Under the pieces are notes generated by a model. The model was not told where the DNA came from. It searched no databases and was given only the letters and a program-made list of their open reading frames with translations. From a virus: a stretch of DNA of 64,000 bases. Positions within the stretch are counted from its first letter, which is position 1. Each line of letters starts with the position of its first letter. Where the stretch lies: the IMG/VR virus record IMGVR_UViG_3300048597_000133, positions 33,523 to 97,522 of that record, one strand, 5' to 3'. Below, one piece after another: positions 6,388 through 56,901 of the stretch. Position numbers and translations under genes: made by a program.

Positions 6388-6732
6388 TTATACTTTCAAC
6401 CTAGTCAGAACACCTTCTAAAGCGGTAATCAGTTCCATATGGCGGTGGGCAGTGATTACCTTTAAAGACCCTTTCTCTTCTACTTCTGCGATATATGGGT
6501 ATCTAGAACTGGGGCGGCTAACGACGACAGTATAGTCTTTAGCCTTACTAGTTCTATCCTTTAAGGAGACCCATACTTCCTCGTCATCTACGTCTTTAAC
6601 TGTTACAGAAAAAGTCGTACCCAGAACTTTTCTAATGGTTCTACGGATACTACGTATTTGGTCCTGTGTCATAGTTTTGCTACTCAATAATCGACTTAGT
6701 GAGCCCAAACCGGGGCGATAGAATAAGAACAT
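6388..6732 (-). CDS. hypothetical protein
   Basis: ORF; start probably the internal MTQDQ. Confidence 0.5.
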   Translation of the reverse strand: MFLFYRPGLGSLSRLLSSKTMTQDQIRSIRRTIRKVLGTTFSVTVKDVDDEEVWVSLKDRTSKAKDYTVVVSRPSSRYPYIAEVEEKGSLKVITAHRHMELITALEGVLTRLKV

Positions 6733-9609
6733 GCTCCTTTAATCTCAGACCCTAAAGCCTCAAATTGTTCGGTTTGTACCTGTTCCATTATCTGTTTAAT
6801 AGACTCAGCTATCTCTAATGCTAGGACATCATGCTCGAAGACTAACTCTGTGTATAGCCCGTCGGCGCTCTTCTTGCTCTTGTCCCAGTCAATGGTAGAC
6901 TTACCTGGAGCGTAGATTAAGATTTCCAATCGGTGTTACGCCCTACCCGATTCCGATAGGGCTCCTTAGCTTTCACTAAGGGTCAGACTATATCATCAGC
7001 ATTATCATGCTGCAACCTGTTTCGAGGTCTCTTGACCCCTACTCCCTTGCGGGATAGTCGTTGGACGGTCAAAGAGTCCTACCTTGTAATACATACCATA
7101 CAGCTTATTCTTACAGATAAATGATTCTACAAAAGAGCCGAACGCGCTAGCGCCTTTAGTCCCTATATATAGATAGTTATAACTTTTACCACTTTTCTTG
7201 ACGTCTTTCCGCATTGCAGGTCTGAAACTTAGCAGTGATTCAAACTTATCTATCAGATGCAAAGTCTCTTCATCATTTAGCATGTTGCAGTAAAGGTGCA
7301 TAAAGTGTTTCTTTTTATGCCAACTACCGTCATCTAAGTACCAAATTATTAACTCGTTTATAGAGAGCCTATCTATAGCTTCTTTATAGGTTAAGTCAGC
7401 TAAGACATCAGCGTAGTAGAAAGGCGATGTCCTAAACGAATAAATAGGTTTATCTCCGTAAGAATCTGGATGTTGTTCACTCACTCGTAACCTATCTTCG
7501 TATCCAACATATTTAGCCTTCCATTTTATATAGTCGGCGTCCGTACCACTAAACGTTATTTGATGATGTCTACAGCTCTTTTGTTTAGATATACACCCAT
7601 CGCCTAATTTAGCTGTCAGATACAAGTTTATAGGAGTCATTTATAGTAGAGTAAGGTAAGGACTCTAAGCTTCGCTGCTGATTGCCCAATCTTATGTAAT
7701 TATAAGCTCTAAGGGGTTCCCAGCAATTAAGGTTGTTTACCCACGACAAAATCTATCGTGCACCTGTCCGATAAGCTGAACTCTGTTATCATTGAATATA
7801 GGGTGGTTATCAATCCACTTCTGTATCCTCAACATTGACTCCTTCGTTTGTGAGCAGCTGAGGCTTTGAATGGCACAATTAACAGCAGCGCGCACCGCAG
7901 AGTCGCCGTCCTTGCCGCCTGACCGCTCTTCGGACACCCACCTCCATCGTCCAGTCAAGGGCACAATACAAAACCCCCGTGCGGAGGCTAATGCCCCATA
8001 ACTTTCAGCCCATTCATAATACCCGGCATAGGTCTTACGATGATTAGCCACCCAGGACTCTGCTACATCCAACTTCACATGGTTTCGTTCACTGATTGAC
8101 TGACTAGTACTTAAGTACAACATCGCAAAATTGAGCGTCTTTGAGATGTCTCGTGGTTTACGCTTTTCTCCAGGCTGTACAACGCGAACAATAGCGTCCC
8201 ACTCTGACTCAGGCTTCCCTTCTATAAGATGAGGATGGGTGCAAGTGCACCCAGTTAATGTATGAAGGTCAGAGTAGGGGTCTGGGTATTCTGTCCCATC
8301 TGGTAACTTCTTTTTCTTGGGCAATAATTGAGCCTTAGTCATAGCAGGGTCTTTGCTTAATACCGTAGCTACGGCTATTTCTTGCAGTATTGTTATCATT
8401 GAGTTCTTTATCTCAACTTCTTATGGTTTACTATCCCATAAGCTCAGACTATATCATCTTCCTGTACATACAGGAAGGAGGGCGCTCGTGGCTGCATTAC
8501 TGTCTGTTCTAGACTCGGCAGCTAGTCGTTACACTTTCCTACTATCCCTAGTAGACTTAGCTCGGGATTATCCTTAAATACTCAGAGGACGTTCCCCGAA
8601 TTCACCCCCTTTGCTCCTAAACATTACTATTTAGGGGAGCCGGACTTACTACCTAGCAGAATATCTCTCTTTCTATGGAGAGCTGGCGCTGATAAATCAC
8701 TATACAAATAGCTTATAAACTTCCTTCTGTTATCAGATACGCCTGATACGTATGCTGCATGTACATTTTCTTTTATAAGTCTATACCAACAATTAACGCC
8801 TTGTGATTGCATATAATCAAGCGCTTGGTCTATAAAAGATTTACTGCCTGAAAATATGTAAGTTGATGTTTTATGAACTGTACCGTTCCCATCAAAGTAC
8901 CCTCGGATAAAATCCCAGGTGAAGTTAAAATTTAACTTAAGGGTAAGGCTTTTTCTCGGTGTAATACCTAAAGAGATAAGGAAGTCTACAACCATCACAT
9001 TAGAGAATCCTACGGCATATTCATATACGCCATATTTTTTATTCCAAGACCTGTTCACATTTACAGGTGCTTTTAAGAATTCAATATACTTCTCTAAGTG
9101 TTCTGGGTCTTTATTTGTACAAATACGTACGCAGCTGGCTTTGCCTTTAATGTCACTAACACAACCGTCGGATGCTATATAACCCAACCAGTACTGAGTT
9201 TCAGGATTGGTTAAATCAGCAAATGGATTATGGTGAACTTTTCGTAGTCTATCTCCTGTAGAGATTAGAGGTATGTTATTACGCAAAAGAATTCTCCTAA
9301 CGGAAGTATTGTTAGCTAAACCTGTTTCTTTAGCTATCTCTACTGTGTTTAATCCTTGTTTGTATAACGATACAACTAATTCTTCAGTTTCTTTAGAGCA
9401 ACGCTTAGGCATAATTTCTACTGTAGTTAGTGTTTTTGACTCGAGTAATCTAAAGATACTATACAGCTCCCAGAGCCATCACCGCAGGTAAAGCCATTAC
9501 GTGGGTTGCTGACAAAAGATACAACTTCTTCCTCAGTCTGTGGTTTGTCTAAGGCTACAGCAGTTTGGTTGGTGCCGGGCCTAGTAGTTATTCTTCGTTT
9601 TCGTTTCAT
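6696..9609 (-). CDS. polA: Family A DNA polymerase, C-terminal (palm/fingers) subunit; exons 9439-9609, 7755-8384, 6696-6926 (343 aa spliced)
   Basis: Joining the exons restores motif A (SLDYSS|QEIAV) and motif C (QVHD|EIL); motif B (RDISKTLNFAMLY) and AVNCAIQS lie in exon 2. Confidence 0.9.
6927..7754 (-). mobile_element. Group I intron in polA motif C
   Basis: Exon CACGAU pairs with intron GUCGUG (P1 with U.G); intron AGAUUU pairs with 3' exon (G)AAAUCU (P10); core elements AAUUGCUGGGAA, AAUCAGCAG, CAACGACUA, GAUAUAGUCUG; terminal G at 6927. Confidence 0.92.
7005..7640 (-). CDS. LAGLIDADG homing endonuclease (intron-encoded)
   Basis: LGDGCI and WYLDDG motifs; lies inside the intron. Confidence 0.85.
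   Translation of the reverse strand: MTPINLYLTAKLGDGCISKQKSCRHHQITFSGTDADYIKWKAKYVGYEDRLRVSEQHPDSYGDKPIYSFRTSPFYYADVLADLTYKEAIDRLSINELIIWYLDDGSWHKKKHFMHLYCNMLNDEETLHLIDKFESLLSFRPAMRKDVKKSGKSYNYLYIGTKGASAFGSFVESFICKNKLYGMYYKVGLFDRPTTIPQGSRGQETSKQVAA
8385..9438 (-). mobile_element. Group I intron in polA motif A, with the endonuclease ORF 5' of the ribozyme core
   Basis: Core at ~8385-8640: GAAUUCGGGGAA, AAUCCCGAG, UAACGACUA, GAUAUAGUCUG; 5' exon ends in U (AGU), intron ends in G; removal restores DYSSQE in frame. Confidence 0.88.
8627..9412 (-). CDS. LAGLIDADG homing endonuclease with N-terminal HTH (intron-encoded)
   Basis: YWLGYIASDG and FIRGYFDGNG motifs; N-terminal LYKQGL...EIAKE. Confidence 0.88.
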   Translation of the reverse strand: MPKRCSKETEELVVSLYKQGLNTVEIAKETGLANNTSVRRILLRNNIPLISTGDRLRKVHHNPFADLTNPETQYWLGYIASDGCVSDIKGKASCVRICTNKDPEHLEKYIEFLKAPVNVNRSWNKKYGVYEYAVGFSNVMVVDFLISLGITPRKSLTLKLNFNFTWDFIRGYFDGNGTVHKTSTYIFSGSKSFIDQALDYMQSQGVNCWYRLIKENVHAAYVSGVSDNRRKFISYLYSDLSAPALHRKRDILLGSKSGSPK

Positions 9610-9842
9610 GGGCGGTCACTTAGTTCCTTGAGCTTTTGTTTGCCTTTTTTGGTTAAGGTGAGCGGAGCTGACTGTTTAAGCAAATCTTTACCCTTGAGAG
9701 ATTTAAGGGCGTCGGCAATTTGCTGTTTAGTTAGCCCCCCGCAGTCTATAGGATAAGCAATAGGGTTGTGGTCTATAAAAGACTGCAACACCAATTGCTC
9801 ATCTTCTGTTAACTGCGGACCAAAGTTATTGGACTGGGTCAT
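9606..9842 (-). CDS. small hypothetical protein, possibly winged-helix
   Basis: ALKSLKGKDLL...LTLTKKG resembles a wHTH wing. Confidence 0.45.
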   Translation of the reverse strand: MTQSNNFGPQLTEDEQLVLQSFIDHNPIAYPIDCGGLTKQQIADALKSLKGKDLLKQSAPLTLTKKGKQKLKELSDRP

Positions 9843-12306
9843 GGGCGGCGGTGGCGCGTAAGGTCTCTAACTCATTAATAATGTCTAACAACTGCCACGA
9901 CTTATCCATGTCATAGCTATATGGATAACCAGTTACTAGCTCTCGGTACTGCCAAATCACGTCACCCATAAGCAAGTAAGAGTCTTCAACTTTTCTATGT
10001 AAGCCTACCTTTATGCGACGGTATTCTTCACACAAAGCTCTAAATTCAGGACTCCAATCAGCAATGCGCTTAGTGGTTACTGGGATAAACCTGCCCAGTC
10101 TCATACGAATGCGGGGGTAGATATTACCACACATGTTTGAGTCTCCGGCAAAATCTAGAATGTCTGCTGAGTGTTTACTTTCTAACCATTCGAAAAGGCT
10201 CTGTCGAACTTCTTGTATGCTGACCCAATTACATAAACCAGCTTGCCTTAAGGTCGTGATCTTATCTGCCGCGTTGCTTGATACAGTAAACCGAAAAGGA
10301 TGGTAGTGCTTAATGAAACAGCGCGGCGCCATAGCTACACACTTATAGTTCTTATCAGTGGATATAAACCCATGGTCATTATCAGACTCTAGATAAATAA
10401 TCCGTTCAGATAATAACGCTTCGTTAATGTCATCTAAGTTCTCTACAGTGTGTACATGCGCCCAGCTACCTACTGGAATGTAATCTTTGGACGTGTTACG
10501 TAGCTGACGCATCAAAACAGCCAGGTTTACCCCAGTCTTAGCCTCCACCTCATCCTTCTTACTTTTGTTTGTTGGTTTAGACTTAGGGCTGCTATATACC
10601 CCCAGATAATTAATAAGGGCGCCATAGGACTTAAATAGACGGTCGATTTCGTTAACAGATGCCTCGCCGTTAGCTAACTTTAAGACTAATATTGGTCCAT
10701 CGACACGTTCTTTATAGACCCGCTCAAGTTGCTTCAATGTCACATCTTGCCCGCGCGTCGCCACTACAGTAAGACCTAAGCCCAACACCTTTAACCTATT
10801 TATCTTTGTGCCACCTTTCGGCACCGCTTTAATCCTATGATGTACGTAGTTATCCCGTAGCTCCTTACATAGGTCATCTTCATACCTATAAAGGTGATCT
10901 TCGTGAGCCAGGATATAAAACTTAGAGACAGCCCAAGACGCATTTATGTCGTTGTTATTATCTTGATAAGACTTTAACCCGGTTGCATGTGGGTGCAAAA
11001 GGTTAATGGTCTTAGTATCCCCTTCGTATAAGAACTCAGGGTACGTAGATTCAGCATGTTCCCCGCCTTTATAGCAGAGAGTATACTCACCAAACTTGAC
11101 GGTGTAAGTAAGGTTATTCAGCCTATAACAAGACAACACAGCCAAGACCTTACAGCAAAACTTAAAGAACGTGTTAGCTAAGGTCGTCGCGTTGTCTAAC
11201 TCATCTACGTTCTTTATATAGACATCAAAAGCCTTTTGGATATGTCGCCCTATTTCCTGGTTGAATACTTCTGTAAGAGCTTCGTAGGCAAGCTGCTTTA
11301 CGGATTCTAAGGTCAACCGTTTGAGGTCATTATCTAGTAGCTCTTCGCGACTAGTGTTAAGAGGTAAATAGCCGGGCGGTACCCGAATAACCACAATATA
11401 ATGTGACTCAGTACTTAACTGCCTAAATCGTTCAACGAAGGACAAAGCGGTTTCAATAGTATCTTGCCGTCTAAGTCTGAGACCGCTACCTGACGAGTAA
11501 TATGACCTGCGGTTAAGTGGGTATAATGCACCGCCCAAATCTAAAACTAGATACTCACCACTAAACCGGTTAGCCAGATAAAAGTCTACAGTGATGTCTA
11601 CACCTTTATTGTCTTTGATAGGTAAAGACCAGCACTTAAACTCTTCTAGATTATGGTTAAACCACCAGTCATCGTCTTCACTATCTTCGTGAAAAGACTC
11701 TCCTTTGAGAATATTGACTTTATACCTAGACACCTCCGTTAAATCTAAGACATTGGAGATTATGGTGTCCACAGAGGTTTTAGCCGTAGGTATAGTCACC
11801 TCTAATCCAGTATTGTCGGCGGGCACCGGCTCCGGCCCAGACCAAACAGTCAGCTCAGGGATGTGATACTCATTGAGATTACAGAGGTATAGAGTTTCAT
11901 AGCCGCCGTGAAAACTACGGATATAGAACTGTTTGGAGAATGCTAATGGCGCTAAGCGACCTACACCGTAAGCGCCAATGGCGTTGGCATTATCCTCCTT
12001 AGTGCTTTCTCCAATGTGGGTATATAACCCGTGCATTTGCTCATCACTTAGCCCTGGCCCGTGGTCTCGAATAACAACCCGGTCTTTTTCTATAGTGATG
12101 TCTACGGCTAATCCAGGCGCTACTTCGTTATTAGCGTCGTAGGCATTGCTAATAATCTCCCGTAGGGCGGCGGTCAGTGGGTTGGCATATTGCTGGGTAA
12201 TTAAGAGCTGACTTAGTTTAGCCAGTTGCTGTCGCTCTAACTTAATAGTGAACTCTTTACCAGACTCGTTTTTAATGGCAGTGCGGGATTCTAAGATGGG
12301 TTTCAT
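9826..12306 (-). CDS. rIIA: rIIA-like protein (GHKL ATPase N-terminus)
   Basis: ALREIISNAYDA, IRDHGPGLS, GESTK, IGAYGVG and NTGLEV motifs, plus L..SREEL; 826 aa, typical of RIIA. Confidence 0.75.
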   Translation of the reverse strand: MKPILESRTAIKNESGKEFTIKLERQQLAKLSQLLITQQYANPLTAALREIISNAYDANNEVAPGLAVDITIEKDRVVIRDHGPGLSDEQMHGLYTHIGESTKEDNANAIGAYGVGRLAPLAFSKQFYIRSFHGGYETLYLCNLNEYHIPELTVWSGPEPVPADNTGLEVTIPTAKTSVDTIISNVLDLTEVSRYKVNILKGESFHEDSEDDDWWFNHNLEEFKCWSLPIKDNKGVDITVDFYLANRFSGEYLVLDLGGALYPLNRRSYYSSGSGLRLRRQDTIETALSFVERFRQLSTESHYIVVIRVPPGYLPLNTSREELLDNDLKRLTLESVKQLAYEALTEVFNQEIGRHIQKAFDVYIKNVDELDNATTLANTFFKFCCKVLAVLSCYRLNNLTYTVKFGEYTLCYKGGEHAESTYPEFLYEGDTKTINLLHPHATGLKSYQDNNNDINASWAVSKFYILAHEDHLYRYEDDLCKELRDNYVHHRIKAVPKGGTKINRLKVLGLGLTVVATRGQDVTLKQLERVYKERVDGPILVLKLANGEASVNEIDRLFKSYGALINYLGVYSSPKSKPTNKSKKDEVEAKTGVNLAVLMRQLRNTSKDYIPVGSWAHVHTVENLDDINEALLSERIIYLESDNDHGFISTDKNYKCVAMAPRCFIKHYHPFRFTVSSNAADKITTLRQAGLCNWVSIQEVRQSLFEWLESKHSADILDFAGDSNMCGNIYPRIRMRLGRFIPVTTKRIADWSPEFRALCEEYRRIKVGLHRKVEDSYLLMGDVIWQYRELVTGYPYSYDMDKSWQLLDIINELETLRATAAHDPVQ

Positions 12307-12662
12307 TAGTTCTTGATGGGGAATTTGGACTCGAAGGATTCTTTGAGGGCATTAGCTAACTGAGTGCCTTTATCTAAGGCCATATCACTTAGCTCTTTAG
12401 GGTCTAATCCTGGATAATCTTCAATTAGCTGCGGGAGATAAATTATGGCGCAGGTCAATGCTTCAGTTGCCCAATACTCGTCGGAATTAATATAAGGGTC
12501 TTGCTCTTCAGCTAAAAGCGTATAGAGGTCGCATAACTGGTCTTCGATGGAAGACAGGTATTGATCCCGGTCAGCGATTTGTTTGAGGTAATGGGCGCCG
12601 TAGACCACGGCCTTCTGAATAGTCTTGAGGTAGTTAAGAACGTGAGTCAGTGGATTGTTCAT
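12306..12662 (-). CDS. hypothetical protein
   Basis: 118-aa ORF coupled to rIIA (TAATG overlap). Confidence 0.6.
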   Translation of the reverse strand: MNNPLTHVLNYLKTIQKAVVYGAHYLKQIADRDQYLSSIEDQLCDLYTLLAEEQDPYINSDEYWATEALTCAIIYLPQLIEDYPGLDPKELSDMALDKGTQLANALKESFESKFPIKN

Positions 12663-12686
12663 TGGTTTGGTTTAGGTAGGTAAAAC

Positions 12687-12719
12687 AAAGCCCGCCGATT
12701 ACTGTATCGACAGGCTTTT
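12687..12719. terminator. intrinsic terminator-like hairpin
   Basis: AAAGCCCG.CGAT...ATCG.CAGGCTTTT imperfect inverted repeat flanked by A and T runs. Confidence 0.5.
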
Positions 12720-13002
12720 CGCAAAAGGTGTTGATTAAGTGCTAGCGCCATTCAGGCTCAGCTTTCTGTAGCAGAGTCGTGAGGTTGGCACGCCTATTCT
12801 TTACCTTAAGCCTTTTGTTGGTGTTTAGGCTTCTAAGATATGCAGTGGTTTTTGTCTGGTAATTAGTAGTTGAGTTCATGGATTTGGTATCAAAATATAC
12901 CATTTGATTATAGCGCGGCGGTTGATAACCTTTTTGTTTAGCGGCGGCTAGAAGTGGACTAAGTTGAGTGTAGTCGAGCTCCTATTTTGTCTATGAGTAG
13001 TT

Positions 13003-14151
13003 ATGGCTAGTTTAAAAGAGCTGTACAGATTACAGAGCACGCTGACGGGCGAGCAGGTTAAGAGTTTATACGAAGGGGAGTTTGACACTAACGCCTACAC
13101 TGATGCTGAGAAAAATCGCTTAGCTAGTCTTTATTACACCCCTACAGCCACTAAGACTTCTAACTATACAGCTGTTAATGGTGAAGAAGTTAGGTGTGAT
13201 ACTACAACCGCCGGGTTTACAGTAACCCTACCTCTTAGTGGCTCTGTAAGGATAGTAGACATAGTGGGCACAAATATAAACAGTGGCTTTGGGACTAACT
13301 CGTTGATGTTGGTAACACAAGCTGGCCACACTATATTGGGTGAGTCAGACTTAGAGTTAGATGTTGGCGGGCTCCGTCTTGTGCTGGCTTTGTATGGTAG
13401 TGACTGGAAGGTTATAGATGCTTTAGGACCACAATTTGCTGCCCTTGAATGGGATATGGTCCTTAATAAGCCGGCATTTGGCACAGCAGCGTTAACAGAT
13501 AGTACTGAGTATGCTACGGCAGAACAGGGTGCTAATTCTGTTCAGGTGACAGGTAACCAAACTATTGCTGGAATAAAAACTTTTACTTCTCCCCTTATCC
13601 TTCCTGACAATTCCCGCATCAATGGGGTAGAGCATTTTTATAGAACTACTAAGCCCACGGCAAGAGGGGATGGGAGTGCGTTGGTTGCTGGTGATAAGTG
13701 GTACAAAAAAGATACTGGAGAAGAATGGTGGTGGAATGGGACTTATTGGGTTGGGGATATCATTGTAGCCTCAAATTCTTCAAGTCACAGTATAACTACC
13801 ACAACGGAAGGGTATGGGGTTCCTTCGCCCACCTACCCTCAAATACTGATTGAATTTATTTCTAGCTACTTTTATCTTAATGATATCGATGCCACTATTG
13901 ATCCAGAAAATTATCATGTATTAAGACTTTATAGAAATGGTAGCACTTATGTTGCTGATCTTTTAATCCGTCCCGCTTCGGGAACACAGTCTGGCGCAAT
14001 TAATTACATTAGCCCTCAACTTTCAATTTATTCGTCAACAACCGGGGGGTTTCAGTTTTCGTATCGTTACGACGCAGGTAATGGTACTCCTGGCCCTGTG
14101 AATACGCAATCGGTTGTCAAGACTTTGTATTACAGAAATGTATTTATCTAA
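13003..14151 (+). CDS. tail fibre-like protein
   Basis: Thr/Gly-rich; FGTAA, GNQTIAGIKTFTS and GDKWY...WWWNGTYW fibre motifs. Confidence 0.7.
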   Translation: MASLKELYRLQSTLTGEQVKSLYEGEFDTNAYTDAEKNRLASLYYTPTATKTSNYTAVNGEEVRCDTTTAGFTVTLPLSGSVRIVDIVGTNINSGFGTNSLMLVTQAGHTILGESDLELDVGGLRLVLALYGSDWKVIDALGPQFAALEWDMVLNKPAFGTAALTDSTEYATAEQGANSVQVTGNQTIAGIKTFTSPLILPDNSRINGVEHFYRTTKPTARGDGSALVAGDKWYKKDTGEEWWWNGTYWVGDIIVASNSSSHSITTTTEGYGVPSPTYPQILIEFISSYFYLNDIDATIDPENYHVLRLYRNGSTYVADLLIRPASGTQSGAINYISPQLSIYSSTTGGFQFSYRYDAGNGTPGPVNTQSVVKTLYYRNVFI

Positions 14152-14621
14152 TGAAACGCAACTCAACTACTTTATTCCTCGTGTCCCCCGGTGCTACTAC
14201 TCCCATTCCATGGGTAAATGGTGCGCCTGATTTCTCTGCTTTCACAGAACCAACGCTATCCGTTTTGCAAAATAGCTGGCAGGCATTTCTTGATAGTGGG
14301 CAGGAGTTAGAGGTAGTACCTGATCCTGAACCAATAGTAGAACCTCCTACACCTAACTGGGATGGTTTTAACGCCTATATGCTCACCGACTCCACTTTCA
14401 AAACATATCGTGATTCTGTAAGACAAGCTGACGGCGACCTTAACGCTGCTTTATTCAACGCGTATGCGTTAGTAGTGAGTAATGGAGTAGCACCATTCGC
14501 TTTAATATGGGGCGTCTGGTGTCAGTTAGCCCAAATTACTGCAGAGGATAAGGAGCAAATAGCCACCGCAGCTGAAAGCTTTAACCTTACTAACGACTTT
14601 ATTAACACTATAAGGGGGTAA
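14151..14621 (+). CDS. putative tail fibre assembly/accessory protein
   Basis: Coupled to the fibre gene; PNWDGFNA domain shared with 15906-16412. Confidence 0.55.
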   Translation: MKRNSTTLFLVSPGATTPIPWVNGAPDFSAFTEPTLSVLQNSWQAFLDSGQELEVVPDPEPIVEPPTPNWDGFNAYMLTDSTFKTYRDSVRQADGDLNAALFNAYALVVSNGVAPFALIWGVWCQLAQITAEDKEQIATAAESFNLTNDFINTIRG

Positions 14622-14623
14622 CT

Positions 14624-15109
14624 GTGCCTAAGATATCAGAAAAATTAAAGCTAAAAGGGCACTTAGACGGCACGGAAATCAAATCCTTATACGAAGGCGT
14701 CCCAGATACCAATGCTTTTACTGATAGTGAAAAGTATAAGCTTAATAACTTAGTAGGCAATATAGAAACTTTTATTCTGCTACTTACTCCACCGGAAGTA
14801 AATATCACCCTCGACGCCAATATACCGGCTATCAATTACTTTCCTTATGCAATGACCGTCACTTCTATACTGGCTAGTTTAGATATAGCACCCACTGGTT
14901 CGGCGGCAGTGATTAATGTGTTCAAAAACGGTACAACAATGCTCAACGCCAGCAAGTTAACCATAGCGGCTGGGACTAAAACTGTGGTCGGCACTTTGGT
15001 CACTACCACCATTGCGGCTGGGGATGTGATTAGCGCATCCATCGACCAGATTGGGGCGACGGTTCGAGGTCAGTATTTAAGCATAACAATTAATGGGGAG
15101 AGGGCTTAG
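14624..15109 (+). CDS. tail fibre-related protein (N-terminus paralogous to 13003)
   Basis: GTEIKSLYEGVPDTNAFTDSEK versus GEQVKSLYEGEFDTNAYTDAEK. Confidence 0.6.
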   Translation: MPKISEKLKLKGHLDGTEIKSLYEGVPDTNAFTDSEKYKLNNLVGNIETFILLLTPPEVNITLDANIPAINYFPYAMTVTSILASLDIAPTGSAAVINVFKNGTTMLNASKLTIAAGTKTVVGTLVTTTIAAGDVISASIDQIGATVRGQYLSITINGERA

Positions 15110-15111
15110 AT

Positions 15112-15900: not shown

Positions 15901-15905
15901 TTATC

Positions 15906-16579: not shown

Positions 16580-16580
16580 T

Positions 16581-44805: not shown

Positions 44806-44855
44806 AGTTAATGGTAAATGTGGGTAGAATGGGCTGCAGCTAATTACCTTTTTAG

Positions 44856-45530: not shown

Positions 45531-45532
45531 AA

Positions 45533-46596: not shown

Positions 46597-46618
46597 AGAG
46601 GTGTAGCCAGTAGTCTTT

Positions 46619-47630: not shown

Positions 47631-47693
47631 TTAAAGAAAATCAGGATGTCTACCTTAAAACTAAGCTATAAGTGTAGTGTTTGAGTTTGAACT

Positions 47694-47888: not shown

Positions 47889-48007
47889 TTTTAACGGGGG
47901 AGTGATGGGAGTGGGATGTAGAATGCAGTGTCTTCTACTGTGTAGTTGAGCTCACTTCTATCAGACATAGAGTAAAGTTTATTGTCTTGTTCAGCGTTGG
48001 GCTGATT

Positions 48008-50533
48008 TTAAGCATCCAACCACTCAAATAAATAGTCCAAGACTTGAGGTGTGACCTTTACTTCTTTATTATCAAAACAAAGAGAGTAGGCGTTGTCTCC
48101 CCACTCCATCCACGCTGTGTAGATATTTGTGCCCCAATCAAAAGACCAGCCACTTTTCTGTAGAAGGTTAAAGCAGAGCATATAGTGCTCATAGTCTAAC
48201 TTCTCATGGTCAAAGCACTTAGTGTATATCTGCCTTACGGTTTCGACGATGTTTTTATACCAAGTTTCACTGTAGTCGTCGCAATACGTGGTTAGATCAC
48301 ACAGTAGCTCGCCAACAGTCCAGACTTTTAATTTATAAGGAATGTCTTCTTTTTGGTCTTCTTCAGCCTGACAGCACCTAAAGGTCACTATAACCTCTTC
48401 GTATTCTTTGTTTAATGCCTGGAACAGTTCTTGTTTGGTCATTTCATCTTAATGTAGTGTTCAGCTACGAATAAAGCAGTTTTGGTTAAGTTCTGTACGA
48501 CGTAGCCTAAATCTTTATAACTACTAACTGCGTCGCTGTAGTCCACAAAAGGACTCAAGTCGAAACAATGACCACAGTCAAAGCCCACCCATTCTTCGAT
48601 CTCAGGTTCTCCTACCTGTGGTCGGTATACTCCTAAAGTGCTCTCGCGGTAGGTCACGCCTCCGTGAAAGGGGAGCTCTCCTGCAACGGCTCTTGGCAGC
48701 CCTAGATAACCACACCAGAACCCAAGGCTAGAGTGCCGCCACATCACACAGACAATGTTTTCCTGGGGCATAAACCATTGTAGATAGTCTGGTTCATTGG
48801 ACCATATACCCTGTTGATGCTGCTCTTTTACTTTTTGCAAGTGGGAGTCCCACAGAACGTTAGCGACTTTAAACTTTGCTTCGGTTAAGGCGCTGAATTC
48901 TTTTAACTCTTTCATATTTCTAACACCCCTTAGTATTGTAGATAAAACCTTGACTGTGTGCTCTACGGTGTTTTTCAGTTTCTTTAATAGAGTATCGCCT
49001 CGCTGCACTGTAAGAGTTAAATGACTTTGAGTAATATTCATGCCCATTTGGGAGTGTGATTACTGCATGATACTTCCCATCCTCGTAAAAGGCTCTTCTA
49101 AGTTTTTTCATTTGATGTTGAGGTGATTAGATAGATTAATCTCTTCTACAGTCTCATTACCGCAGCAGTGGTCCAAGGCTCTATCTCTACTCTTATAAAG
49201 CTGGGCATCTCTTAAGTCGTTGGTATAAGATTCTTTAAAACCCGCTTTAGTGACCCACCCTCCAGGAGGATGAACACGACGAATAGCATAATAAATCATT
49301 CCTTGTTATGTTTCCTAATTAACGTTTTCTAGGCAAGCCTGCACCCTTCTTTGGTATTCTTCTTCGACTAGCTGCTTAACCTCTTCTAGGTTGTAGCCAT
49401 CTACCCAGTGGTCGTTCACCAAGTACTCGCAATGCCATGCAGCTATATCGAGGTTGTACTTTGGATTGTCTTCATTACCTTTCCACGAGATACGGAACGC
49501 CCCAAAAGGGCTTTCAGCGATCACGTAGCTATAGGACCCTTTGCTGCCTCTCTTTCTGGGCTCAGACCATTCTAAGGGTCTAACATTAGGCTTAGGGGGA
49601 ATTACAGTGTTCTGATAGCCATCAAGAGTGTCAGAGTACCACGTCTGGTTGATGCCGGCGCCTGTAGTGTTAACTATTAAAGATGTTGTGTCTGATAAGT
49701 CCAGTGTGGAGTCTTCTGTTAATAAGACTATTCCTTGCAGCTTATCTGAAGTAAGAGATGTTGGGTCCATTGATGTGTTTTCCATAGTTTAATTCTTAAA
49801 GGCGACGATATCGTGGTCAGTAGGTAGGCGTTTATTGTGATAGACGTGCCCAGAGTCGATACGAGATACAAAACGGGGCCGTACTTTGCCGTGCTCTAAG
49901 TTGATGATTAAGTAGTCCATACCGGCACGTTTAGCTTTGTTGACCAACTCACAAAAGTGGGAGCCAAAACCAGCCTCTCTCATAATGAGATAGACATCAT
50001 AGTCTAATGCCCGGTCATCGTCTAGTTCGGCAAAGACCCGCCCCAAAGTAATTCGAACTGATTCATTCTCGGTGAACCAGTCGAAGTCTATGTAGGCTTC
50101 ACTACTGAGACTGCAGTGTTCTACTGTTAATTCTTTGCAGAGTAGGTCCCAATCCTCTTCAGGAATGTGTAGCCAGGATACTATACCTACCGGCAGGCTT
50201 TCTATTTTTGTCAATTTACAATCCATTTGGGTAATCTCCCATAAACCAACAAAGACATTTCTCTTTCCTTGAGTCAGCTCGATATTCAGCAATAGCTGGC
50301 GCTACTAACTCTGCATAGAAGTGTGGACTTGGAGTAAACCATATAGTTTTATCTTCTTTCTTCATGTTTGTAACTATATCCCCAGTCTTTATCAGCTTTG
50401 ATACTTCTCCCCAATGTGCTAATCCCCATAACTTTATAGACTTCCAATCTTGTCCGTCGTGGAACTCAACATATCGACGCGCTAATTCTCTTGCTGTAAC
50501 ACACTTAAGTCTAGAATGTTTAACCATAATCAA
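48008..50533 (-). CDS. cluster of hypothetical proteins (48008, 48439, 48920, 49108, 49315, 49789, 50216)
   Basis: Co-oriented ORFs; 48439 has WCGY...HGGVTY...WVGFDCGH, a conserved phage motif. Confidence 0.6.
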
Positions 50534-50713
50534 ATGCGGCGGTCAAGTTCGTCTTCTAGCATCTGTTCGAACATAGTATCCTGCACTCCTTTAGCTTGCA
50601 ATCTCCTATAACTGCGATATAAGTCTCTAAGTTCTCGCATCGGTAGAGCTTTTATATCTTTGCGTACCTCATTAAAAGTACGTCCACGAAATTTAATCAT
50701 GAAAATGCCTCTT

Positions 50714-51598
50714 TTAATCAGCTAAAACGTCACTAAAATCAAAAGTCTCAAACTCATCAACCATCTCTACTAGTTCAGCGTTATATTTATCCCAAATCTG
50801 CGATGCAGTAATCTGTACGTCATATCCGTCTTTCATCAAAGACCTAACCAGCCACTTCAGTCCATTAAATGTAAATCTAGTTGATTGAGTTGTACGCGTA
50901 TTACCGTAGTTATCGTTCCAAGTAGTGGTAACTACGATAGCCCATTCTGCTTCAATAGCTCTACGGTAAGGGACCGGTGCGCCCTGAACTAAAAAGTTCT
51001 TTTCCCGTAGGTACTTGATAAGATTGTTACGCCCCAATTTCTTAATGTTGAGGGCATCCGCTACCTGCTTTAAGGTAAGACAAGAGTCATCGCTAGTTAT
51101 AGCGCGGTATGTAGTAAGAGTTTCTTCCGCTTCAACTAGCTTGTTGGAGTAGAAGTCTGTTTGGGCTTCTAGGATTCTATTTTTGGCCGCCAGTTGTAGT
51201 TTTTCTTCTTCGGCGGCTACTAAGGACTTAAGAGCCGATAGATAGTCTTGTGGTAATGAGAGAGATACAGAACCAGTAGTTAATAGTTCCTCTACCCAAG
51301 TATCTACTTGAACAGCGAATTGTGGGGAGCACCATTGAGCGAAACGCAAACACACCCGACGATGAGCCCAAGTACCCTGTTCTTCAGGTACGCCACCTTG
51401 TTTAACTTGAATAATTTCCGTTGCGGGGATGCCCGTAACGCTCTCTAGCTCTGCGATATACTCTATAACAGACGTTTGACGTAGCCAATCATTGACTCTT
51501 TTGCCTGTAGCTTTAGCCATATCGGTGAGACTACCATATTGGTCATCTTGTCGAAAACGAATAGTTTTGTCATTCCAAGTTTTGATGATGTTATCCAT
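50714..51598 (-). CDS. KilA-N domain plus KilAC/ANT antirepressor-like protein
   Basis: LTDMAKA.GK...DW, QGTWAH...FAQWCSP.F, LPQDY..AL, GRN.L..YLRE. Confidence 0.9.
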   Translation of the reverse strand: MDNIIKTWNDKTIRFRQDDQYGSLTDMAKATGKRVNDWLRQTSVIEYIAELESVTGIPATEIIQVKQGGVPEEQGTWAHRRVCLRFAQWCSPQFAVQVDTWVEELLTTGSVSLSLPQDYLSALKSLVAAEEEKLQLAAKNRILEAQTDFYSNKLVEAEETLTTYRAITSDDSCLTLKQVADALNIKKLGRNNLIKYLREKNFLVQGAPVPYRRAIEAEWAIVVTTTWNDNYGNTRTTQSTRFTFNGLKWLVRSLMKDGYDVQITASQIWDKYNAELVEMVDEFETFDFSDVLAD

Positions 51599-51621
51599 AA
51601 TTATCCGTTTGTGTGTTCAAT

Positions 51622-51652
51622 AAAAACGCCCACTGTAGAAACAGTAGGCGTT
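51622..51652. terminator. terminator hairpin, near-copy of the hairpin at 43112-43137
   Basis: ACGCCCACTGTAG-AAACAGTAGGCGT versus AGCCCACCGTAG-ACAGTAGGCT. Confidence 0.6.
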
Positions 51653-51677
51653 CAATAATAGAGGTAGTGTGACGCGT

Positions 51678-52037
51678 TTATAGCTTGGTAACCCTTACCG
51701 ACACACGACCTTGTCGCAATGGTGCAATACGTTGGAATGCTGCTCGGCTAAGGTCGATACTACAATTCCCGCAACGGTCTGTAATGGTGACCACCACAGA
51801 CTTACCATTAGCTGGATTAGTTACCCTTACCCTGGTACCCAATCGATAATGATTAGAAGCAGCAGTCATAGCATTGGGGTTATAAGGACGTCCATTAGCT
51901 TTAGTGCGCCCCGCTAAACTGGGGTGGTAATAAGTCGCACTGGCACGACGCCCAGCCTCCGCTGGTAACATAGGGCATAGTATAGCCATAAGACTTACTA
52001 AGACGGTGGCTTGGGCAAATTGTTTAATCGTTGACAT
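51678..52037 (-). CDS. RlpA-like double-psi beta-barrel protein
   Basis: Signal peptide, ATYY, ANG..YNPN.MTAA, GT.VRVTN..NGKSVVV.ITDR, IDLS.AAF. Confidence 0.9.
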   Translation of the reverse strand: MSTIKQFAQATVLVSLMAILCPMLPAEAGRRASATYYHPSLAGRTKANGRPYNPNAMTAASNHYRLGTRVRVTNPANGKSVVVTITDRCGNCSIDLSRAAFQRIAPLRQGRVSVRVTKL

Positions 52038-52067
52038 TAATCACTATTGAATTCGACATTGGTGCCG

Positions 52068-53432
52068 CTACTTCATTCGTTGAGCAACGGCGCGGGCTAG
52101 CTCAGACCTCACTGAATCTAATAAGGTTAGATGGGCAAAGCCTGAGTAGCCGCGCATACGTTCGGTGGTGACAGCCAGACCATTACTGAATTCATCCATG
52201 AACTTGGCAGCTTCCTGATCTATCTGCTCCACGTCACCTAATAAAATTAGCTTAGAACCCTCCCCGATTCGAGTTGCTATTGTTTTTGCCTCCGCCGGCG
52301 GCACATTCTGCATCTCATCTAGTACAATTATACTGTTGCGCCAAGTTACTCCTCTAATATAGGTAAGGCTAACAGCTTCCACTGGTCCATCGGGGTTAGT
52401 ATCGGACTTAAGGTAGATATCATAAGGGTTTAAGCCTACCATGCGGTTCTTCTGATTCTTATCAGTCTTAGCTAACTGGTTAAGACATCCGTACAAACCA
52501 GCTAACCAAGGGTCAGTCTTTTCCTTGATATTACCTGGGAGCCAGGGCGGTTTATCGCCAACCCCTACCTCCTTACGACCAATGATAATGGTCTCGTATA
52601 ACCCTAAGTTCTGACATTGATGAAGAGCTGCGGCTAAAGCCAATAAAGTCTTACCAGACCCCGCTTGACCAACCAAGGACATCATAGTGACTTTAGGGTC
52701 TAATAAGAGTTCTAAGGCATATTTCTGCTCAGAATTTAACGGTTGAATGCCTGTGACTTTCAGACCGTTATGGGTACTGATAACAGATAAGCGGTTTTTA
52801 GACTCGTCATAACGAGTAAGAGCTTGACGCCCAGTAGACCCCATTAAGGTTACACATTCGTTATGTGTTAGCCCTTTTAGTTGTTTTAAGGTTAAGTCAC
52901 CTAATGAGTCTACGAGAATAGACTTGTTAGGGTCAGACCATAACTCCATAAGTTCGTCATCAGACTCACAGCATACAGCGCGGTGGCCTGTGTAAATGGC
53001 TTCTACCCGTTCATTACGGTAGTCCTCAGCGAGTATCCCTCTAGTGCGGGCCGCTACTCTTAGCCCCAGGTCTTTGCTAACTACAATAGCGCCGGGGCAT
53101 TGTTGACTATACTCTATTAACTTGACGTCACCGTAACCATCTAAGGCACTTAAACCAGCTCCGGCACCTAAGACAAGACAACCGCCGTCATCATGCAGCG
53201 GAATGTTAGGTAAAGAGTCAAAGTATTGAAGGCTTAGTTTGTCTAGATGTCTGGTGACCTGGCGGCTATTTTTGCCAATTATGCCCGGGCTATTTTTCTT
53301 TTTATCTAGCTCATATAGGACAATCTCTGGGATGTGTACCTCATTGTCCTTGAACTTAAACAAAGCCTCGGGGTCATGGAGCAACACCGAGGTATCTAAG
53401 ATGTATCGCTTTTTCTTAGTCGAGCTCATCAC
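52068..53432 (-). CDS. phoH: PhoH2-type protein (PIN plus PhoH ATPase)
   Basis: YILDTSVLLHDP...ELD (PIN); GQAGSGKT, LPG...EK, YIRG, LDEMQN, TRIGEGSK..LLGD..QID. Confidence 0.92.
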   Translation of the reverse strand: MMSSTKKKRYILDTSVLLHDPEALFKFKDNEVHIPEIVLYELDKKKNSPGIIGKNSRQVTRHLDKLSLQYFDSLPNIPLHDDGGCLVLGAGAGLSALDGYGDVKLIEYSQQCPGAIVVSKDLGLRVAARTRGILAEDYRNERVEAIYTGHRAVCCESDDELMELWSDPNKSILVDSLGDLTLKQLKGLTHNECVTLMGSTGRQALTRYDESKNRLSVISTHNGLKVTGIQPLNSEQKYALELLLDPKVTMMSLVGQAGSGKTLLALAAALHQCQNLGLYETIIIGRKEVGVGDKPPWLPGNIKEKTDPWLAGLYGCLNQLAKTDKNQKNRMVGLNPYDIYLKSDTNPDGPVEAVSLTYIRGVTWRNSIIVLDEMQNVPPAEAKTIATRIGEGSKLILLGDVEQIDQEAAKFMDEFSNGLAVTTERMRGYSGFAHLTLLDSVRSELARAVAQRMK

Positions 53433-53461
53433 AGGGGCATTGTAAAATAAGGAACCTATAG

Positions 53462-54163
53462 CTAACCTAGGTCAGCAGCAGCGTATACTACAGGGAATTG
53501 CTCTTTAAAGATACTTGCGGCGGCTAAGGCCACTTCACGATGTTCTAACTGGGTAGAAGGGTCACAACGTACCTTAAAATAATGTACCCAACTACGTACC
53601 GACCCCTTCATATATAACCTGGTTTTAGTTCCGGTAGGCAATAATGTCCGGGCACATTCCTTGGCTACACCAGAGTCTAACGCCGCCCTATACAAGGCAT
53701 ACGCCCTATCCCAATTGTGCGCTTGTGCCTCTAGAAAATCAGCCTTTACCTTATCCGGTAAGTCATCTATAGAATTCTGCCTGTTTTTATGGTCTTGCCG
53801 CCGTGCGCCGTACTCCTCATAATCAAAAGCTTCTGAATACCTCTGAGAATGCATCTGAAATACAAACGTTCTGTGTCTGATAAGTTGGGTAGCAATAGAG
53901 ATGCTAGTAATTATCTCTAGGGTCATATCAATCTGTTCTAGCACTGACCAATGGGACCCACGAATGCAATATCGTAGCAGCTTCTCATAATCAGGGTTTT
54001 CTTGATTAGGGCTACTGACACGAGCACAATACGCCATCAACCCTTCAGGGGTGGGCACTGTACCGTCTTCAAAAGCAAAACAAGGTTTAGTTACAGCAAT
54101 AAGTCTGACAGAAGGCATAAGACAGTTAACAGTAGAGGGCGTTATTGAAGGCAGGCTCTCCAA
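53462..54163 (-). CDS. thyX: flavin-dependent thymidylate synthase
   Basis: ARVS, HWSVLE, QLIRHR..F...SQRY, KECAR..LP, QLEHRE. Confidence 0.95.
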   Translation of the reverse strand: MESLPSITPSTVNCLMPSVRLIAVTKPCFAFEDGTVPTPEGLMAYCARVSSPNQENPDYEKLLRYCIRGSHWSVLEQIDMTLEIITSISIATQLIRHRTFVFQMHSQRYSEAFDYEEYGARRQDHKNRQNSIDDLPDKVKADFLEAQAHNWDRAYALYRAALDSGVAKECARTLLPTGTKTRLYMKGSVRSWVHYFKVRCDPSTQLEHREVALAAASIFKEQFPVVYAAADLG

Positions 54164-54755
54164 AGAGATTCTGCCCGATTAATTCTTCTAGCTTAGCGGC
54201 GGCAATAGCACAATAAGCCTCGGGGTCATTATAGTCGTTGTTAATGGTTAGAAACTTAACACCACGCGACTCAAAAGACTCACGGTCGATATATTGTCTA
54301 GAATCACCATCAAAAGAACAACCAGGGCGGTGAATCTGAACAATAGTTATCTGTCTAGGGTTGAAGTTATTCAACAAAGGCTCGACTTCTTCGCCAAAAC
54401 CTCCATCACTAACCACAAAGACATTATTGTCATGGTAAGGATGCCGTTTGATTTCCCCTATCAGCTGGAGACCAAAGAAGTCTTTACCGTGAAAGCGCTT
54501 GATATAACCTTCAGAGATGTTGATATAGGCTTGGCGCGGCGTCAAACCTAAGAACTCTGTCAACTTCTGGTCTTTGAGTGACTCATAAGCTGCAGGATGC
54601 TGGTCTGGAGTGTTATAAAACCGGTGGGTAATCTTCTTCAGCTCATTAGCGAACTTGATGTGGATTACATAAGGCTTATGTAATTCTACAAGGTGACTAG
54701 CTAAGAGGTCTTTACCAGAGCGCGGAGGACCGTTAAGGATAATGATTTGTTTCAT
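54126..54755 (-). CDS. deoxynucleoside monophosphate kinase
   Basis: GPPRSGKD, KFA..LK, TPRQ, VSDGGF.EE, DSR. Confidence 0.8.
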   Translation of the reverse strand: MKQIIILNGPPRSGKDLLASHLVELHKPYVIHIKFANELKKITHRFYNTPDQHPAAYESLKDQKLTEFLGLTPRQAYINISEGYIKRFHGKDFFGLQLIGEIKRHPYHDNNVFVVSDGGFGEEVEPLLNNFNPRQITIVQIHRPGCSFDGDSRQYIDRESFESRGVKFLTINNDYNDPEAYCAIAAAKLEELIGQNLFGEPAFNNALYC

Positions 54756-55108
54756 CAGTTGTTGGTGGCGGCTGCGCTTTTTACTTGGAGCTCTTTATTG
54801 ATCAGACTCATTTGCTCATCAATAATGGCACAAACTACAAATTCGTCTGAGCGCATTTTTCTTACTAGACCAACAATTTTATCCTTCTGGTCTTGAAGCA
54901 CTTCGTTTAAAGGACGACCCATTAAATCGCTAATGGCGTGGGCTGCGCTGAATACCTCACCAGTTTCACGGTCTTTAGCCGTCATATGATTGGTGAATAG
55001 GTCTTCTAAGGTGGCCAGCACTTGGAGTGCCACCTGGTCATCATCACTACGGGTAACGAAATCTAATTCTAGTTCTGCGGCGAGACTGGGCTTGGTTTTA
55101 TCAGACAT
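54755..55108 (-). CDS. hypothetical protein
   Basis: 117-aa ORF. Confidence 0.6.
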   Translation of the reverse strand: MSDKTKPSLAAELELDFVTRSDDDQVALQVLATLEDLFTNHMTAKDRETGEVFSAAHAISDLMGRPLNEVLQDQKDKIVGLVRKMRSDEFVVCAIIDEQMSLINKELQVKSAAATNN

Positions 55109-55152
55109 TACTTTTATCGGTTGGGTTGTGGTTTAGTTTAGCTTATTATCGT

Positions 55153-56901
55153 CTAAGTCAATAGTAAGTGCCGGGGCATAGTGACTGGTATTTGTAAACG
55201 ACCGGATTGCTGCTGCAAATTTGGAGTACGACAGTTCGACACGCATATGCCGGCGACTATGTAGTTATGACAATCAGCTACTTCTATGTCATACACCTCC
55301 ACAGCGTCGTTAAGGATAGTGGTCTTAGAAACAGAGTTGCCGGTTACTAGTTGTTGGCCTTGCTTTAAATCTTTAGCTTGTACCCAATCTCCGTTGTGGA
55401 GCATGATTTTATGGTCAGCGGTGCAAATCAAAGAATTGTTAGCGTAATGTAATTTGACTTCTATTACTTCCCTAATACCGTTATTAAAGAGATTAGTTAC
55501 AGGTCTGGTGGTGATTCTAGGCTCATTAGTGTAACAGTAAACCCTATCACCAACTTTTAGCTCTTCTATAGAGACAGGTCCATTTACTGTGGCCACCTTC
55601 TGTCCTTTGGCTATGCATGCCAACCGTCCAGTAGCAGCACCGAGTTGGTCATATGAAGCGTGTATCCGCTTAGTGGCAGGATTAATGAAGTTCCGTAAGT
55701 CCATGCCGTCCTGCTTAGTTAACTTCTTATATTCCAAAATGGACCTGACCACTGGAGTTAAATCACTGAGCACTGAATCTTCAAGGGACAGCAGCTCATC
55801 GTATAGCTCTGCTTCATCTTGGTCAATGAATATCTCCGCAGCGGCTTCCTGTTCATCTCCTTCAAACTGAGACAAAGCATCAATAACATCTAAGAGTCTT
55901 TCTAAGACCTGCGCTTGCCCGGTAGTTATCTTTTTAAGTCCTAGACCCCTATTAATGAGTTTAGGTAACCCCTGAGCTGAGCGAAGAATAGACATAGCCT
56001 TAGGGCTAGGCTCTAACTTGCGAGTAACAGGATTCTTCATCGGCGGGTCTAAGTCCAGCTCTATACTTAACTCAGCCCCAACTTCTAAAAGTCTGTCTTT
56101 GATAGCCTGTTGGAAATAACCCATGGTATTCTCACCCACAGGTATGCCGTTATACTCCATCTGGGCAATAACAGGCACTACCTCCATTTCCAGGTCCATA
56201 GTCTCCTGCATAGCAAGACCCCAAGACCCAGTATGTTCGACGTAGTTATTAGTTTCTAATAGTGGTGTATGTGGTAATGGGTCAGTCAGCACTTTACGCT
56301 GAATATCCATTATGGGGAATAGATGTCTAACATCGTTGGCAGCATAAGTAACTTTCTCTAACCACCACTCAGACTCTAACGTCCTACCTTCTATTCCAAT
56401 ACCCCAACTAGAAACCCTTAAGTCTTTCTTACCAGTAACATGGACATTTAACAGTTCCCTACAAATATCAGCATACCCGTGCCCTAGTTGTCTACTAACC
56501 TTAGATCCAGTCGCATTACCGATTAACTTCGACGCCATAACTACGTCAAATAGCTTTTTAAACCAGACGCCTAGCTCCTTACGCAAGAATTTAAGGTCAA
56601 ATTTAAGGTTAGCTCCGATCAGATACTCGGCATTATTAAGCGTATCTATGAGTAATTGGTTGACTTCTGAGATATGTGGAGATTCTTTAAGGATGAAGTA
56701 GTCAATGACTAGAGGTTTAGGTTGTTGTCTTTCTAAGAGAATAATTAAAGCAATGCCGCCGGTATGGCAGTCTAGAGCAGAGCCCTTAGCGCCCCATTCA
56801 GAGAGAGCATAGGTCTCAGTATCTAAAGCAAGCGGCCCGCCAGTTAATGTACCTAGGGCCGCTTTAAGGTCATCTACTTCAGTAATGTAACTAAAGTCCA
56901 T
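55153..56901 (-). CDS. polA: Family A DNA polymerase, N-terminal (3'-5' exonuclease plus thumb) subunit, intein-containing
   Basis: ExoI LALDTET, ExoII NLKFD, ExoIII YAAND, LEM...IAQMEYNGI, RIHASYDQLGAATGRLA-[intein]-CRTPNLQQ, then stop; motifs A-C absent. Confidence 0.9.
   Translation of the reverse strand: MDFSYITEVDDLKAALGTLTGGPLALDTETYALSEWGAKGSALDCHTGGIALIILLERQQPKPLVIDYFILKESPHISEVNQLLIDTLNNAEYLIGANLKFDLKFLRKELGVWFKKLFDVVMASKLIGNATGSKVSRQLGHGYADICRELLNVHVTGKKDLRVSSWGIGIEGRTLESEWWLEKVTYAANDVRHLFPIMDIQRKVLTDPLPHTPLLETNNYVEHTGSWGLAMQETMDLEMEVVPVIAQMEYNGIPVGENTMGYFQQAIKDRLLEVGAELSIELDLDPPMKNPVTRKLEPSPKAMSILRSAQGLPKLINRGLGLKKITTGQAQVLERLLDVIDALSQFEGDEQEAAAEIFIDQDEAELYDELLSLEDSVLSDLTPVVRSILEYKKLTKQDGMDLRNFINPATKRIHASYDQLGAATGRLACIAKGQKVATVNGPVSIEELKVGDRVYCYTNEPRITTRPVTNLFNNGIREVIEVKLHYANNSLICTADHKIMLHNGDWVQAKDLKQGQQLVTGNSVSKTTILNDAVEVYDIEVADCHNYIVAGICVSNCRTPNLQQQSGRLQIPVTMPRHLLLT
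55234..55617 (-). mobile_element. mini-intein (128 aa, no endonuclease)
   Basis: Block A CIAKGQKV, block B LICTADH, block F VYDIEV..HNY, block G VSN/C. Confidence 0.9.

Follow-up and report, generated by a model that had tools for sequence, protein, structure and literature searches.

A stretch of 64,000 nucleotides, corresponding to bases 33523-97522 of the 97.5-kb IMG/VR virus record IMGVR_UViG_3300048597_000133 and referred to here as the window, was analyzed for two genes carrying complementary parts of a family A DNA polymerase (PolA). The record is a linear metagenome assembly with a CheckV completeness of 56%, and its source is a large, cyanophage-like virus. Based on sequence comparison and a complex model, the two genes probably encode a functional two-subunit family A DNA polymerase and were probably unlinked by a block interchange. 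The N-half (exonuclease, thumb and motif 2) and the C-half (motifs A, B and C) are both located on the − strand, with 45,543 bases between the N-half stop codon and the C-half ATG, matching the distance of about 45 kb given in an initial annotation of the window. The naturally two-subunit PolA proposed there is well supported by the conserved break point, the intact catalytic motifs, the lack of an intact polA in near-complete relatives and the model of the complex. The polymerase features are as follows.

55153..56901 (−): N-half of the family A polymerase, open reading frame (ORF) of a 582-aa precursor (PF01612, PF00476, PF14890, PF07591)
55234..55617 (−): mini-intein of 128 aa (residues 429-556), placed by Pfam intein matches and alignment with the intein-free P0005 and P0015
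9439..9609 (−): C-half exon 1, 57 aa, beginning with an ATG of its own and comprising the basic head MKRKRRITTRPG..., NPRNGF and the part of motif A that ends with SLDYSS, placed by alignment with intron-less relatives
8385..9438 (−): group I intron 1, 1054 nt, cutting motif A at DYSS/QE (RF00028, 59.4 bits at 8672..8420)
7755..8384 (−): C-half exon 2, 210 aa, with the rest of motif A, the fingers including motif B, and motif C up to VHD (PF00476 positions 203-336)
6927..7754 (−): putative group I intron 2, 828 nt, cutting motif C at VHD/E (RF00028, 30 bits, E 5.6e-5 at 7361-6964)
6696..6926 (−): C-half exon 3, 76 aa and stop, from the E of motif C to the conserved C-terminus ...APVWAH, placed by alignment

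Gene structures of the two halves

The N-half precursor consists of a 3'-5' exonuclease, a thumb, motif 2 (TGRLA-C-RTPNLQQ) and a conserved 18-aa tail, followed by a stop. Residues 10-203 matched PF01612 (DnaQ-type 3'-5' exonuclease; 47.2 bits, cut-off 23.6), residues 371-429 corresponded to PF00476 profile positions 58-123, and residues ~436-551 matched the intein domains PF14890 (40.9 bits, cut-off 35.8) and PF07591 (55.5 bits). The ORF and the Pfam matches agree with the exonuclease, thumb and stop 18 residues past motif 2 that were initially annotated, to which the 128-aa mini-intein is now added. The gene reads ...TGRLA/C(intein)...VSN/CRTPNLQQ, then the 18 residues QSGRLQIPVTMPRHLLLT, then the stop, and the next ORF begins 44 nt further on. 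The acidic Exo I motif (DxE) is present as ALDTET, D28 and E30 being invariant among 23 aligned homologues. Identity to the intein-free P0005 (454 aa) is 88%.

The mini-intein is located between A428 and the +1 Cys of the TGRLA/C motif and is without an endonuclease domain. Its ends are C429 and N556, followed by C557, and its domain matches (PF14890, PF07591) are those of a HINT fold, while intein-free homologues run ungapped through ...GRLAC.... All inteins of the polymerase family share this one insertion site, with sizes of 128-333 aa. The mini-intein is presumably competent for splicing. Once it is spliced out, subunit 1 would comprise 454 aa with the proofreading exonuclease, the thumb and palm motif 2.

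The ATG of the C-half at 9609 (−) overlaps the stop of an upstream 78-aa ORF (ATGA). Splice sites were set by alignment to intron-less relatives. Joining of 9439-9609, 7755-8384 and 6696-6926 (−) resulted in a protein of 343 aa that aligned end to end with intron-less relatives and was 77% identical to its nearest homologue. The spliced protein retains motif A (SLDYSSQE), motif B RDISKTLNFAMLY and motif C (VHDE); the C-half with its own ATG and the three motifs, as initially described, is intact following removal of the two introns. In the family alignment, R, K, N-F and Y of motif B and H-D-E of motif C are invariant. Both motif 2 and motif A with its catalytic Asp are present, the former in the N-half and the latter across exons 1 and 2 of the C-half. 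When both introns have left the mRNA, subunit 2 would comprise 343 aa, with motif A, the fingers with motif B, and motif C.

Intron 1 exceeded the Rfam gathering score (59.4 versus 50 bits). It is preceded by a U at the 5' splice site and ends with a G, and its removal restores the frame. A LAGLIDADG_3 ORF (PF14528; 9412..8627, −) is carried ahead of the ribozyme core (8672..8420). This ORF lies between the 5' splice site and the core, placing the P1 partner strands ~800 nt apart. Use of the Rfam match end (8420) as 3' splice site gave a stop codon or a non-canonical end, and the candidate was rejected in favor of the G at 8385 indicated by alignment. At the motif A site of intron 1, no intron was found in the sampled relatives; homologues of its nuclease are located elsewhere in L005 and L008.

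Similarly, intron 2 has a U at position −1 and a terminal G, its removal restores a frame matching that of relatives, and it carries a LAGLIDADG_2 ORF (PF03161; 7640..7005, −). Its VHD/E site is also interrupted in L005 and L007, with a homologous nuclease ORF in L007 and no ORF of that family in L005. The L007 homologue (L007:13134-13797) is split in two frames, with ORFs of 80 and 100 aa, and is probably a decaying homing endonuclease. In G003, the last C-half exon lies 3.7 kb past the previous piece (L006:13236-19033), and several ordinary ORFs are located between them.

The break point, the complex model and the polymerase family

The halves were compared with the Klenow fragment. The N-half profile covers chain positions 294-360, ending at PNLQNIP, and the C-half covers 364-411, beginning at RIRQAF. 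Since the N-half ends at position 360 and the C-half starts at 364, the halves are complementary and non-overlapping, confirming what had been proposed from their motifs. The cut falls within a clade-specific insert of ~40-50 residues between PNLQQ (motif 2) and R-x-x-F/motif A. The fused polymerase L028 holds this insert in one chain, as PNLQQI, ~34 residues and QRECF. No second PF00476 match was found in the 97.5-kb record, where an intact polA, named in the initial annotation as a finding that would contradict the proposal, was looked for.

Modelling of the two halves together, also suggested in the initial annotation, was carried out on the cognate pair of G001 (P0015 and P0207). Intein-free and intron-free G001 proteins were used as input, together with family alignments. 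A Pol I-like assembly was obtained with an ipSAE of 0.86-0.87 in three runs, versus 0.00 for the best of three controls; in the benchmark, that mark was reached by 58/80 solved complexes and 2/110 mismatched pairs. At least 80% of the contacts were shared between runs, and the partner pLDDT (predicted local distance difference test) was at least 83. Confident contacts include the C-terminal tail of the N-half (428-450), C-half residues 23-40 and palm surfaces. The conserved N-half tail (SGRx...K...F), the head of the C-half and the palm surfaces would hold the chains together non-covalently. Docking of the basic MKRKRR tail with the acidic insert of the thumb, on which the initial annotation had speculated, was not borne out: neither the first 22 residues of the C-half nor the insert was among the confident contacts, although residues not named there are merely uncertain. 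Polymerase activity of the assembled protein is predicted from the complex model.

The same split was looked for in relatives and found. Some 60 protein clusters (at 50% identity), including Ma-LMM01 gp180/gp178, end or begin at the same break and keep the two-piece layout, with the break conserved at 25-88% identity. About 50 close N-half homologues retrieved by a word-indexed search measured 445-470 aa; those carrying an intein reached ~600-620 aa, or ~800 aa where an HNH domain was also present, and none of the homologues was fused. All 23 aligned N-halves (23/23) stop within a few residues of one another, following the conserved tail PNxQQxSGRTx7Kx3F. A full HMMER scan without length limits yielded 65 clusters at E<1e-30, nearly all of N-half size. 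Homologues of the C-half are stand-alone proteins of 335-356 aa. In near-complete relatives (94-96%), two pieces only and no intact polA or other PF00476 match were found; other polymerase families were not searched for. The split is therefore no peculiarity of this contig, being a family trait visible in GenBank for Ma-LMM01 gp180/gp178; the 45-kb spacing alone is special here. Judged by these comparisons, the split arrangement dates far back and is common among Ma-LMM01-like and related large phages.

Fused polymerases were also found: L028/P0085 (747 aa, L028:3628-5871), P0072 (746 aa), P0118, P0126 and P0054 (661 aa). The last is 46% identical and runs from the N-half through an intein at the same site straight into motif A. 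A tree of 53 N-half domains was constructed by quick maximum likelihood with a short search and no outgroup. On this tree, the fused forms are scattered, P0054 being nested near the clade of the window. At least four changes between the split and the fused state are required, two of them forced by strongly supported branches, which indicates that the same spot has been cut or rejoined repeatedly.

The 45-kb separation of the halves

In relatives retaining the flanks, the usual gene order is a 179-aa ORF, the RecA-like gene, the N-half, a winged-helix gene with cargo and the C-half, followed by a 471-aa ORF, a 77-aa ORF, an ORF of the uracil-DNA glycosylase (UDG) family and a 570-aa ORF. The halves are located 0.15-3 kb apart on the same strand in 13/13 relatives with enough downstream sequence, 11 of which have the winged-helix gene in between; L024, whose contig ends 2.3 kb past the N-half, stands outside this count. 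Both conserved flanks of the polymerase module are kept in the present contig. The features involved are as follows.

57146..58129 (−): RecA-like gene (PF00154), upstream neighbour of the N-half in all relatives, used as synteny anchor
9843..55152 (both strands): block of ~45 kb between the halves, described by Pfam and by homologues located downstream of the polymerase module in G001
9606..9842 (−): winged-helix ORF, 78 aa, detected with a family hidden Markov model (HMM); it overlaps the C-half ATG with its stop and the end of the GHKL ATPase gene with its start

The block carries genes for a GHKL ATPase, ThyX, PIN-PhoH, KilA-N/ANT, an HNH endonuclease, an ATP-dependent DNA ligase, a kinase-RNA ligase and two IS605-type TnpB proteins, together with arrays of micro-ORFs. 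For comparison with G001 (216 kb, 96% complete), the sequence was divided into segment A (upstream flank to N-half), segment B (block) and segment C (C-half to record position ~6000). The order is A-C-B' in G001 and A-B-C in this contig; the block thus consists of the phage's own genes, moved by block interchange. One breakpoint is located between the N-half stop and the winged-helix gene, where 45.5 kb of native phage genes are now found. By this comparison of gene orders, the 45-kb spacing is a derived rearrangement, and the unlinking is probably real. In this lineage, one breakpoint of the interchange would fall within the variable N-half/C-half gap, into which ~45 kb of accessory genes native to the phage would have been brought. 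The N-half would now be expressed behind recA, and the C-half behind the GHKL ATPase and winged-helix genes.

ORFs on the + strand are present within the block (13003-16412 and 27655-28884), ruling out one transcript spanning both halves. The halves being unlinked and not co-transcribed argues that they meet as free proteins, and the 45-kb separation is consistent with their acting as independent subunits. In promoter scans near both halves, the numbers of promoter-like sites were close to those in shuffled sequences, and terminator scans of the same regions gave no terminator-like site bearing on expression of the halves.

The conserved winged-helix gene at the break had been overlooked in the initial annotation. 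The family has the signature ...AYPxDC...LTKKGK.... With its HMM, a single copy was detected in every one of 11 split relatives, invariably in the gap separating N-half and C-half; the window has one copy as well. The gene is thus present in 11/11 split loci other than that of Ma-LMM01 (e.g., L004:11346-11573, L021:11269-11502 and L027:11718-11966), where it directly follows the N-half or directly precedes the C-half. No match was obtained in Ma-LMM01, in the fused L028 or in L024. Matches to winged helix-turn-helix Pfam families were weak and exceeded the cut-off for the L027 homologue alone. The rest of the gap in relatives is variable cargo, ranging from none (L005, L007) to 2.7 kb of extra ORFs (L021) and elsewhere including helix-turn-helix genes, a LAGLIDADG gene (L008) and a Dam-like methylase motif (L009).

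The winged-helix gene may be a cassette that cut the polymerase gene, or it may encode a partner protein. In a broader scheme, rather doubtful when taken as a whole, the loop between motif 2 and motif A would be a recurrent landing site of a mobile winged-helix gene, whose arrival or loss would switch the enzyme between one-chain and two-chain forms. Once the gene had been cut, the gap would be a free recombination point for the genome. The unlinked halves would come under different transcriptional control, with assembly timed by expression of the C-half and by two intron splicings and one intein splicing, and the winged-helix protein may be a third subunit or an assembly factor.

Several observations weigh against a two-subunit enzyme unlinked by block interchange. 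With 44% of the genome unseen, an intact polA may be located there. The A-B-C order was obtained from one metagenome assembly with a CheckV completeness of 56%. The closest relative, with the N-half P0005 and a C-half fragment, P0211, on one contig of 213,981 bp, is outside the adjacency count. Intron 2, at 30 bits and E 5.6e-5, scored below the RF00028 gathering score of Rfam, and the mini-intein ends with SN rather than the usual HN, the penultimate residue being Ser instead of His. Many single-chain Pol I structures have been solved, so the complex model may have passed through likeness to these alone. While the sequence data show the gene structures, the conserved break, the intact motifs, the synteny and the rearrangement relative to G001, it is an inference that splicing, assembly and activity take place and that the contig order is the order of a real genome.

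Apart from a rearrangement, the 45-kb spacing could be an assembly artefact, either a chimera of strains or a mis-join of halves that are really adjacent; assembly error had been listed at the outset among the findings that would overturn the proposal. The linear assembly, only 56% complete, would allow this, the N-half is located merely ~7 kb from the contig end, the halves are adjacent in all 13 relatives examined, and the A-B-C order is known from a single assembly. Against this, adjacency of the halves would call for false junctions at both edges of the block, each exactly at a gene boundary, whereas one false join would still leave a half without its neighbouring partner. No repeat was found that is common to both junctions or near either of them. 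At the B/C junction, the genes of the GHKL ATPase, the winged-helix protein and the C-half overlap mutually, as in evolved operons, and the genes of the block are native to the phage and roughly keep the order found in G001. An artefact is thus clearly improbable.

The halves might also be decaying remnants of a polA gene disrupted by mobile elements, with replication carried out by another polymerase encoded in the unsequenced part or by the host. Decay would be in line with the burden on this one gene (an intein, two homing endonuclease genes within introns, a break) and with the unseen 44% of the genome. However, both halves are full length and free of stops, are 88% and 77% identical to their nearest homologues and have all catalytic motifs; the two-piece layout persists over the ~60 clusters, and no further PF00476 match was found in the relatives of 94-96% completeness, other polymerase families lying outside that search. 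Decay is accordingly judged very improbable. Joining of the halves following expression, whether through a split intein or through a fragmented group I intron spliced in trans, is barely credible, even at a locus as rich in introns and inteins as this one. As had been noted initially, neither an intron fragment nor a split intein is visible at the break. No group I signal was found by Rfam scanning (E up to 10) within 850 nt downstream of the N-half stop or upstream of the C-half ATG. An interval of 44 nt separates the N-half from the next ORF, and the C-half has an ATG of its own, coupled to the upstream ORF. A split intein made up of the 18-aa tail and the 35-aa head was rejected, these being too short for a HINT fold, and the head ends with VSN followed by Pro, which leaves no +1 nucleophile (Cys, Ser or Thr). 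In addition, the tail and the head show the conservation of ordinary sequence, and the fused L028 retains counterparts of each. A two-subunit enzyme with genes unlinked by block interchange is preferred over these alternatives.

A number of neighbouring genes deserve mention. The TnpB-type genes of the block (IS605 OrfB; PF01385 and PF07282) are located at 27655-28884 (+) and 33505-34812 (−); the latter is 62% identical to a copy in L009 and ~30% to one in L004. The two genes are candidate agents of the rearrangement. The GHKL ATPase domain (PF13589) is N-terminal in an 826-aa protein encoded at 9826-12306 (−), the gene of which overlaps the winged-helix gene directly downstream. No homologue of this protein was found in G001 at E 1e-6, and the gene is possibly cargo specific to this lineage that sits at the breakpoint. 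Directly downstream of the C-half, a UDG-superfamily protein (1702-2541, −) and a 471-aa ORF without Pfam match (3674-5089, −) are conserved in L004, L005, L007, L021 and L026. At a similar position, Ma-LMM01 carries a Pol III beta homologue, gp176 (PMC3201878). A distant module of RecA-like gene, N-half, winged-helix gene and C-half is present in L027 (ERZ1066139.2 NODE-2) on a contig of 581,901 bp, which would be that of a very large phage or, alternatively, part of a bacterial chromosome with a prophage.

Significance and relation to known systems

A replicative family A polymerase with a cut palm, kept in this state by many phages, amounts to a protein complementation experiment carried out by nature. 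To this, the present contig adds that the two genes need no linkage, co-transcription or translational coupling. The defined pair and its natural fused controls (L028 and P0054) can be used to study a polymerase active site built from two chains, and the break point could serve in split-polymerase engineering. The split gene may also be regarded as a permissive point for large genome rearrangements. For annotation, genes labelled '3'-5' exonuclease' in Ma-LMM01-like phages are to be read as genes of polymerase subunits, the partner of which may be far away. The split itself is visible in databases and little discussed, and the unlinking by 45 kb is the new point; no paper describing this break point or unlinked family A halves was found, the literature coverage being incomplete.

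The nearest cultured relatives identified by tblastn, at ~25% identity, are the phages Ma-LMM01 and MaMV, which have the same enzyme family and the same break point. In Ma-LMM01, gp180 ('3'-5' exonuclease') stops ~18 residues past TGRMSSS...NAQQIS, like the N-half described here, and gp178 ('DNA polymerase') starts just before R-x-x-F and VDFSSQELR, like the C-half. In contrast to the window, the Ma-LMM01 halves are adjacent, separated by the 51-aa gp179; there is no winged-helix gene, and no intein or intron was seen in gp180 and gp178. Ma-LMM01 PolA was listed by Kazlauskas and Venclovas (2011), with no mention of a split (PMC3201878). Closer in layout are the uncultured G001-G005 and L021-L029 from IMG/VR and metagenome contigs. 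They share with the window the break, the RecA-like upstream neighbour, the downstream genes, the winged-helix ORF at the break, inteins at the TGRL/C site and, in some, the VHD/E intron. Their gap measures 0.15-3 kb, whereas that of the window measures 45.5 kb; adjacency of the two genes on one strand is customary for two-gene PolA of the Ma-LMM01 type without being one of its defining traits.

Two-gene polymerases have been described in other phages. In clade B T7-like cyanophages of the S-TIP37 type, the family A polymerase is encoded by two ORFs, the exonuclease being split from the polymerase (PMC12695635). There, adjacent genes encode an exonuclease domain and a whole polymerase domain; the enzyme of the window is instead interrupted within its polymerase domain, with motif 2 on one side of the cut and motif A on the other. 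OM43 phages encode their DNA polymerase in two genes with a small ORF in between (PMC10580990); they belong to another phage lineage, the genes are adjacent, and the comparison concerns the two-gene and small-ORF layout. In jumbo phages, a minimal Pol III alpha has been described whose halves come from genes located far from each other and are presumed to reassemble (PMC7824862, 2021). That enzyme belongs to the C family and occurs beside a family B replicase, whereas the split enzyme described here is the only polymerase found; nevertheless, it sets a precedent for widely spaced genes encoding the halves of one phage polymerase catalytic module.

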